Shown here: positions 12,406 to 12,434 of the stretch, in pieces
Layout: each line of letters starts with the position of its first letter
How positions within the stretch are numbered: the first letter of the stretch is position 1
From: a virus
Taxonomy: Duplodnaviria > Heunggongvirae > Uroviricota > Caudoviricetes
Strand: one strand, 5' to 3'
Length of the DNA stretch: 16,643 bases
Virus record (IMG/VR): IMGVR_UViG_2548876934_000006
Coordinates: 1 to 16,643 of that record
Program-made: the position numbers and the translations under genes
The notes under the pieces: generated by a model
The model's database searches: none
Told to the model about the DNA's origin: nothing
The model's input: only the letters and a program-made list of their open reading frames with translations

Positions 12406-12434
12406 TATCGGGTGTTACTGAACCGTGTTGATAC
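12406..12434 (+). repeat. 29-bp direct repeat (second copy at 15268-15296), with weaker similarity continuing about 50 bp downstream
   Basis: TATCGGGTGTTACTGAACCGTGTTGATAC appears at 12406-12434 and again at 15268-15296, flanked by GTATC...GATAC inverted ends. Downstream segments CCAGATTTCGAGGGCCAGTAATACC and CTGGATATTGAGTGGCCGATAATACC are related. Confidence 0.6.

Follow-up and report, generated by a model that had tools for sequence, protein, structure and literature searches.

Exchangeable effector loci are prophage regions in which, according to Nakamura et al. (2021, PMC8112680), effector genes accumulate by prophage-in-prophage integration at attB sites derived from the chromosome, including a ykgJ/ecpE-derived site associated with nleC. 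Phage genomes are more generally mosaic through homologous recombination at short conserved sequences (De Paepe et al. 2014, PMC3945230), and nleB2 together with a subset of other nle genes shares a regulatory inverted repeat, the NRIR (reviewed in PMC7142665). We describe here a 29 bp direct repeat within such a locus, on a 16,643-nucleotide stretch of Caudoviricetes DNA (IMG/VR record IMGVR_UViG_2548876934_000006, positions 1 to 16,643; the whole stretch is referred to as the window). The repeat is part of tfa, the lambdoid tail-fibre assembly gene. We regard it as very probable that its two copies are independently truncated tfa stubs at the left edges of cargo modules, in the exchangeable effector locus of a degraded prophage.

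The window holds exactly two perfect copies of the repeat, TATCGGGTGTTACTGAACCGTGTTGATAC, one at 12406-12434 (copy A) and one at 15269-15297 (copy B), both on the plus strand, and no matches are expected by chance, as none arose in 200 dinucleotide shuffles. Near-identity extends over 34 nucleotides (nt) with a single mismatch (12405-12438 versus 15268-15301), and similarity continues on the 3' side for about 155 nt at 66% identity (z of about 10 relative to shuffles). In each case it stops where a conserved motif ends, some 45 nt short of the start codon of an effector gene. A preliminary description made from the letters of this DNA had recognized both exact copies, although it placed the second one base low, at 15268-15296, and it had noticed related sequence after each copy but put its length at only about 50 bp. 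The features that carry the argument are as follows.

12405-12438, plus strand: repeat copy A, a 34-mer holding the exact 29-mer at 12406-12434 and encoding 10 Tfa residues.
12346-12465, plus strand: tfa 3' remnant A, about the last 39 codons, recognized from a RefSeq pseudogene call, a PF02413 match and homology to lambda tfa.
15268-15301, plus strand: repeat copy B, a 34-mer holding the exact 29-mer at 15269-15297.
15264-15343, plus strand: tfa 3' remnant B, covering roughly the final 26 codons (stop at 15341-15343), recognized from a RefSeq pseudogene call and a match to lambda Tfa.

Read in frame, the 29-mer specifies 10 residues of the conserved C-terminal core of lambdoid Tfa, and it matches phage lambda tfa (orf-194, 194 residues) in frame at 28 of 29 bases, the sole difference being synonymous (a leucine codon that is TTG in lambda and TTA in the window). 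Fragment A matches the Pfam family Caudo_TAP (PF02413) at profile positions 92-124 of 131 (E=4.7e-12, 46.6 bits, with a cut-off of 22.1 bits), and fragment B aligns with lambda Tfa over residues 168-193, 20 of the 26 being identical (E=2e-13). The E. coli Z1323HEC0011 chromosome (NZ_CP148385.1) matches the window at 99.99% identity, the window differing from it by one substitution and one extra A, and the RefSeq Prokaryotic Genome Annotation Pipeline (PGAP) labels both copies in that genome as 'tail fiber assembly protein, missing N-terminus' pseudogenes. The open frame upstream of the 29-mer spans only 25 codons at copy A and eight at copy B, neither of which amounts to a full-length tfa, and tfa homology reaches back from the 29-mer by just 60 nt in copy A and 5 nt in copy B; both copies are therefore fragments, and we consider it almost certain that they are pseudogene stubs of the tfa 3' end. 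Remnant A begins at 12346, where its homology to a longer tfa remnant of O55:H7 begins, and has suffered a 1-nt deletion near its end that brings on an early stop at 12463-12465. Neither copy lies directly behind a tail-fibre gene, copy A following a remnant of nleC and copy B a fragment of an integrase gene, and the tail-fibre genes of the window are themselves fragments only, at 10611-10830. Compared with lambda tfa, the stubs share the in-frame C-terminal core but retain only the last 26 to 39 of about 194 codons; they have no tfa start codon or N-terminal domain, copy A is frameshifted, the stubs are not working chaperones, and no tail-fibre gene adjoins them any longer.

The wider distribution of the repeat is that of a gene segment with a variable left edge. 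Scanning 5426 complete E. coli genomes with the 34-mer found it in 701, with a median of one and a maximum of three places per genome, and of the 798 places in total 796 are chromosomal and two plasmid-borne; annotation was read for 40 rows sampled across the ranking, and all 40 fall under 'tail fiber assembly protein'. The lambda-type variant with TTG is present in at least 120 IMG/VR contigs, and among the matches listed 66 are in full-length tfa open reading frames (ORFs), with about 176 codons open upstream of the 29-mer, and 53 are in truncated ones. The exact TTA variant is truncated in 26 of 26 IMG/VR occurrences, which fall into three breakpoint classes, and likewise at each of the five places inspected in complete E. 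coli genomes other than the record of the window itself. One of these TTA breakpoint classes occurs in prophages of the ST131 type. Across all stubs the truncation points lie 5, 23, 43, 60, 67-68, 75, 99, 194-199 and 342 nt upstream of the 29-mer, a scatter that random deletion predicts and that the defined end of an element does not. Third-position conservation of the 29-mer in 77 intact lambda-type tfa genes is no higher than in the neighbouring codons, although this set is homogeneous (at least 94% amino acid identity) and too uniform to be decisive.

Tfa stubs are not confined to effector genes. We note that in the ST131 prophage of strain JJ1886 (L004, 2253-3628) several of them surround a methyltransferase gene; upstream of these lie an invertible-type tail-fibre region and a truncated recombinase gene. 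Stubs of tfa thus also flank non-effector cargo. Downstream of tfa ends in IMG/VR there is mostly no same-strand ORF within 700 nt, and the link with effectors is therefore specific to some stub classes and not general.

In the window that link takes the form of a shared module plan, in which a tfa stub is followed by about 60 nt, a terminator hairpin with a T-run, a motif that we refer to as D1 (TGTTGnCATG..GATGTTTGTTA), and an effector gene, either nleH or nleG. The parts of the two modules, and a further copy of the hairpin and D1, are these.

12466-12590, plus strand: segment of module A after the tfa stop, with a decayed hairpin at about 12536-12565 and D1 at 12558-12590.
12629-13510, plus strand: nleH, the effector of module A by annotation, with its ATG at 12629.
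15344-15456, plus strand: segment of module B after the tfa stop, with hairpin arms at 15397-15411 and 15417-15431, a T-run, and D1 at 15424-15456.
15502-16062, plus strand: nleG-family (DUF1076) effector of module B by annotation, with a Pfam T3SS_NleG match (E=1e-43) and its ATG at 15502.
10845-10897, plus strand: third hairpin and D1 copy, upstream of nleB2, where the tail-fibre genes natively end.

The third copy is not preceded by a tfa stub. The hairpins upstream of nleG (-18.2 kcal/mol, z = -3.1) and nleB2 (-19.5 kcal/mol, z = -3.7) are intact and that upstream of nleH is decayed. The hairpin and D1 units (10845-10897, 12540-12590 and 15397-15456) may be the NRIR, for which they are unconfirmed candidates. 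We also observe that in O157, O121 and O55 genomes some PGAP pseudogenes, called 'tail assembly protein' or 'hypothetical', read across the hairpin and D1 (PTASQNRSPAPVFV...; L153 967-1044, L007 3091-3167 and L006 2343-2450), and these are probably annotation artefacts.

The setting of the modules agrees with that of described effector loci. By the annotation of NZ_CP148385.1, the window lies in a heavily degraded lambda-like prophage adjoining torT, with the gene order exo-bet-gam-kil-cIII-N-cI-cro-cII-O, then an antiterminator, partial lysis genes and tail-fibre fragments. The effector cluster follows as nleB2, the nleC 5' remnant, nleH, cif, the integrase fragment on the other strand, nleG, two hypothetical genes and espJ, and the effector genes are thus grouped at the tail-fibre end of the prophage, as in an exchangeable effector locus. 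The window resembles the loci of Nakamura et al. (2021) both in having nleB2, the truncated nleC, nleH, cif, nleG and espJ at the tail-fibre end of a lambda-like prophage and in having an integrase fragment inside the effector cluster. In O55:H7 a ykgJ-like fragment comes after nleC, and that paper reports sequences derived from ykgJ/ecpE as an attB within prophages. The window departs from those loci in that the ykgJ-like piece, present at the homologous seam in O55:H7, is deleted in the window, and the 21-bp attB-in-PP_1 of the yecE type is absent from the window with up to three mismatches allowed. Neither tail-fibre genes nor tfa stubs are mentioned in the portion of that text searched, where the term 'tail fiber' does not occur.

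The order of events at copy A can be read from a comparison with O55:H7 strain CB9615, a representative of the O157 lineage.

12021-12345, plus strand: nleC 5' remnant, ending at the deletion joint 12345/12346.

In CB9615 the region runs nleB2, intact nleC, a ykgJ-like fragment, a 156-nt tfa stub, nleH1 and nleD, and the segment joining the ykgJ-like and tfa fragments is present in 337 genomes. Relative to O55:H7, the window lacks 1231 bp comprising the 3' two-thirds of nleC, the ykgJ-like piece and 34 nt from the start of the tfa stub, and in this comparison there is no microhomology at the joint. Since the tfa stub is present where nleC is intact, the stub predates the nleC deletion. Repeat copy A sits 60 nt to the right of the joint, and given this distance, the absence of homology and the greater age of the stub, the repeat did not cause the deletion. 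The joint made a chimeric, putative 43-codon ORF at 12334-12465, which takes its ATG from the nleC side and continues in the tfa frame. Stub A occurs without stub B in O145 strain RM9872, and in O111:NM nleH is present without any tfa stub.

At copy B the neighbouring gene is an integrase fragment, separated from the stub by a short spacer.

14699-15219, minus strand: dusA-type tyrosine integrase fragment, about residues 41-214 of 365, with a weak Pfam Int_N match.
15220-15263, no strand assigned: 44-nt spacer between the integrase fragment and tfa remnant B.

Integrase homology ends at 15219 and tfa homology starts at about 15264; the 44-nt spacer is kept wherever this joint occurs. An intact homologue of the integrase fragment adjoins dusA in O157. 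The junction of integrase fragment, spacer and tfa stub is conserved in several lineages and therefore reflects one old event. Stub B is found without stub A in O103 strain RM8385 and in strain DCE7, and in Z1323MEC0002 a 385-bp deletion corresponding to window 14958-15342 has removed part of the integrase fragment and all of stub B, although the hairpin, D1 and nleG are kept. The stubs look dispensable, because nleH lacks one in O111:NM, nleG has lost its own in Z1323MEC0002, and the core of the nleH1 stub in O157 has decayed.

Strain DCE7, isolated from a pig (NZ_CP090611.1; L237, 1490-3029), provides a view of exchange at the tfa core. Its joint of integrase fragment, spacer and tfa stub is nearly identical to that of the window up to 15296, with seven differences in the last 300 nt before that position. 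The switch comes at 15297-15327, after which DCE7 has a distinct tfa allele (...EWPTSPAE), a terminator unlike that of the window, and cdtABC (Cdt-I) in place of nleG. The DCE7 tfa allele and its downstream DNA are also found behind intact tfa in two IMG/VR contigs (L224 and L044), and from the position of the switch and this second context of the cdt module it follows that a crossover inside the conserved tfa core swapped the nleG module for cdtABC. D1 likewise lies at junctions: in O111:NM strain 14614 D1 holds the join between the tail-fibre end and the upstream region of nleH, and in strain 2014C-3011 D1 is the endpoint of an inversion. The O111:NM fusion could reflect recombination or an ancestral arrangement. 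The DCE7 crossover in a tfa core of about 60 nt and the D1 junctions are like the phage mosaicism described by De Paepe et al. (2014), although here they are seen by sequence comparison, in one case for the tfa core and two for D1.

These observations suggest a history, which we consider likely in outline. We infer that the tfa 3' end, terminator, D1 and effector gene would together be a cargo module that once lay directly behind an intact tfa in another phage, and that it would have joined this locus through prophage pile-up or recombination, with later deletions trimming the stub. Each stub would then mark a seam, at which the right end of another phage, consisting of the tfa tail and its cargo, was joined and the remainder of that phage was lost. 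The 29-mer is identical in the two stubs as the best-conserved part of tfa and not through movement, and the conserved core can offer short homology at which incoming phages exchange their downstream cargo. The seam reading is consistent with the integrase fragment next to copy B and with the ykgJ-like piece that adjoins the forerunner of copy A.

Several points weigh against this account. The role of the 29-mer as a site of recombination is drawn from one comparison, that with DCE7, and the hybrid joining the left side of A to the right side of B, which a deletion between the copies would produce, occurs in none of the 5426 complete E. coli genomes (0/5426). Neither the phage collection nor the IMG/VR loci examined yielded an intact tfa directly before an upstream region of the nleH or nleG type, and the ancestral arrangement is therefore documented for the cdt cargo only. 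Judging from its intact homologue beside dusA, the integrase fragment may belong to an element on its left, so that a simple internal deletion from integrase to tfa within one prophage is not established. Finally, the TTA variant is seen in truncated copies only, a restriction for which common descent of the stubs, or gene conversion, might account.

A bolder form of the same account is that the tfa core, hairpin and D1 constitute a portable 'cassette header', a homology block selectively retained for prophage cargo, which we think rather unlikely. Were it true, the header would carry both nle regulatory signals and a preferred crossover for loading, swapping and stacking nleH, nleG, espM2 and cdtABC, and recombination would be concentrated there well beyond what sequence identity predicts.

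It is less probable still that selection keeps the stubs in a co-opted role, as regulatory DNA or a small ORF serving the effectors behind them. The exact 29-mer is preserved in three independent stub classes, copy A lies within the ATG-started ORF of 43 codons noted above, and reporter fusions in O157 show that full nleH1 expression needs up to 531 bp of upstream DNA (PMC3299786), a stretch that contains the stub. However, it is this same stub, in front of nleH1 in O55:H7 and O157, whose core has decayed, with 8 of 29 bases changed, and both effectors manage without a stub elsewhere, nleH in O111:NM and nleG in Z1323MEC0002. Frameshifts occur in stubs, start sites are missing in other lineages, and folding of the 29-mer as RNA is unremarkable (z = -1.8); an Rfam scan gave no RNA family at either copy. 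The stubs are thus without a shown function of their own.

A similarly small probability, marginally lower, attaches to the proposal that copies A and B are a recent local duplication, in either direction, or have been homogenized by gene conversion within the locus. What prompts it is the contrast between 34-mers that differ at one base and flanks that are about 66% identical, and the fact that both copies are of the TTA variant. Yet 3' of the core the copies carry different tfa C-terminal alleles (SVSPDFE and STALDIEWP), each shared with other genomes, their left breakpoints differ (60 nt versus 5 nt), and they occur separately in nature, A in O145 RM9872 and B in O103 RM8385 and DCE7. A short conversion tract limited to the tfa core is conceivable.

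The preliminary description had suggested that the repeats are scars or ends of a small mobile or recombinogenic element responsible for the deletions nearby, that is, of a non-autonomous element such as a miniature inverted-repeat transposable element (MITE) or the end of an insertion sequence (IS) that truncated nleC and its neighbours. We consider this very improbable. It had placed both copies where a gene is truncated or disrupted, and they do adjoin gene fragments, the nleC 5' remnant and the integrase fragment; the repeat does resemble MITEs and IS ends in being short, with small inverted ends and a position near broken genes. The inverted ends that it pointed to, GTATC...GATAC, exist, but they are 5 nt each and the same ends are found in frame, within the same 30 nt, in intact lambda tfa; they are therefore coding sequence and not terminal repeats. 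No inverted repeats of at least 10 nt occur in 12250-12700, and those in 15100-15560 are the terminator hairpin and one 12-nt pair with 83% complementarity and arms 342 nt apart, which we read as a chance match. There is no target-site duplication at the flanks GGAAGAG/.../GTCAGT and TGAAAA/.../ATCAAC, and the annotation has no transposase beside either copy, an IS1A just beyond the window being the closest. Copy number is low, with only 2 of 798 places on plasmids, and the sampled annotation is always that of tfa. The repeat thus differs from MITEs and IS ends in its constant tfa frame, low copy number, variable truncation points and lack of real terminal inverted repeats, and it lies within the intact coding sequence of a known gene, tfa, in lambda and, as the variant with one synonymous change, in at least 66 IMG/VR genes, a finding that the description itself would have taken as fatal to the idea. 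Nor could such an element account for the nleC deletion, the joint of which is 60 nt away and younger than the stub. We accordingly reject a MITE or IS origin on inverted repeats, target-site duplication, copy number and reading frame. The word 'scars' holds loosely, in that both copies are leftovers of truncated genes at the seams of an effector locus, and 'recombinogenic' holds for the DCE7 comparison, as ordinary homology and not as the property of an element.

Equally implausible is the idea that a site-specific recombinase crosses over at the 29-mer, whether as an invertase site of the Gin/Cin/Pin type or as the core of a phage att site: invertible segments are frequent in tail-fibre regions, an ST131 stub with the 29-mer lies just after a partial 'recombinase family' gene, and the integrase fragment is 48 nt from copy B, but dyad symmetry by inspection extends to 5 nt only, no invertase gene is annotated in the 27.6-kb locus, the copies are direct with no deletion product or other hybrid in the 5426 genomes, attB-in-PP_1 is absent, and breakpoints vary from 5 to 342 nt. 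The hix, gix and cix sites are 26 bp long with two imperfect inverted half-sites of about 12 bp, a spacing that the 29-mer, by inspection, does not fit.

Elsewhere in the window we note that cif (13734-14583) has a run of eight A residues at 14545-14552 where NZ_CP148385.1 has seven, giving a frameshift near the 3' end with the ORF ending at 14558, and that cif is marked as frameshifted in several related genomes. The Rfam element Lambda_thermo, the cIII thermoregulator, is matched over its full model at 1471-1529 on the minus strand (88.5 bits). Three tandem repeats of about 20 nt (ATCCCTCAAAACGAGGGAAA) lie at 5845-5908, inside a replication gene at 5497-6153, and look like lambda-type ori iterons.

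The interpretation of the repeats as truncated tfa 3' ends is an ordinary one and already known, the stubs being annotated by RefSeq and this type of effector locus being well studied. Its use is mainly as a correction, since what has the appearance of a transposon scar, with a short repeat, small inverted ends and broken genes, is conserved phage coding sequence. Tfa stubs show where cargo modules from different phages meet, so that with their help one can trace the stacking and exchange of effector and toxin genes in the prophages of enteropathogenic and enterohaemorrhagic E. coli.
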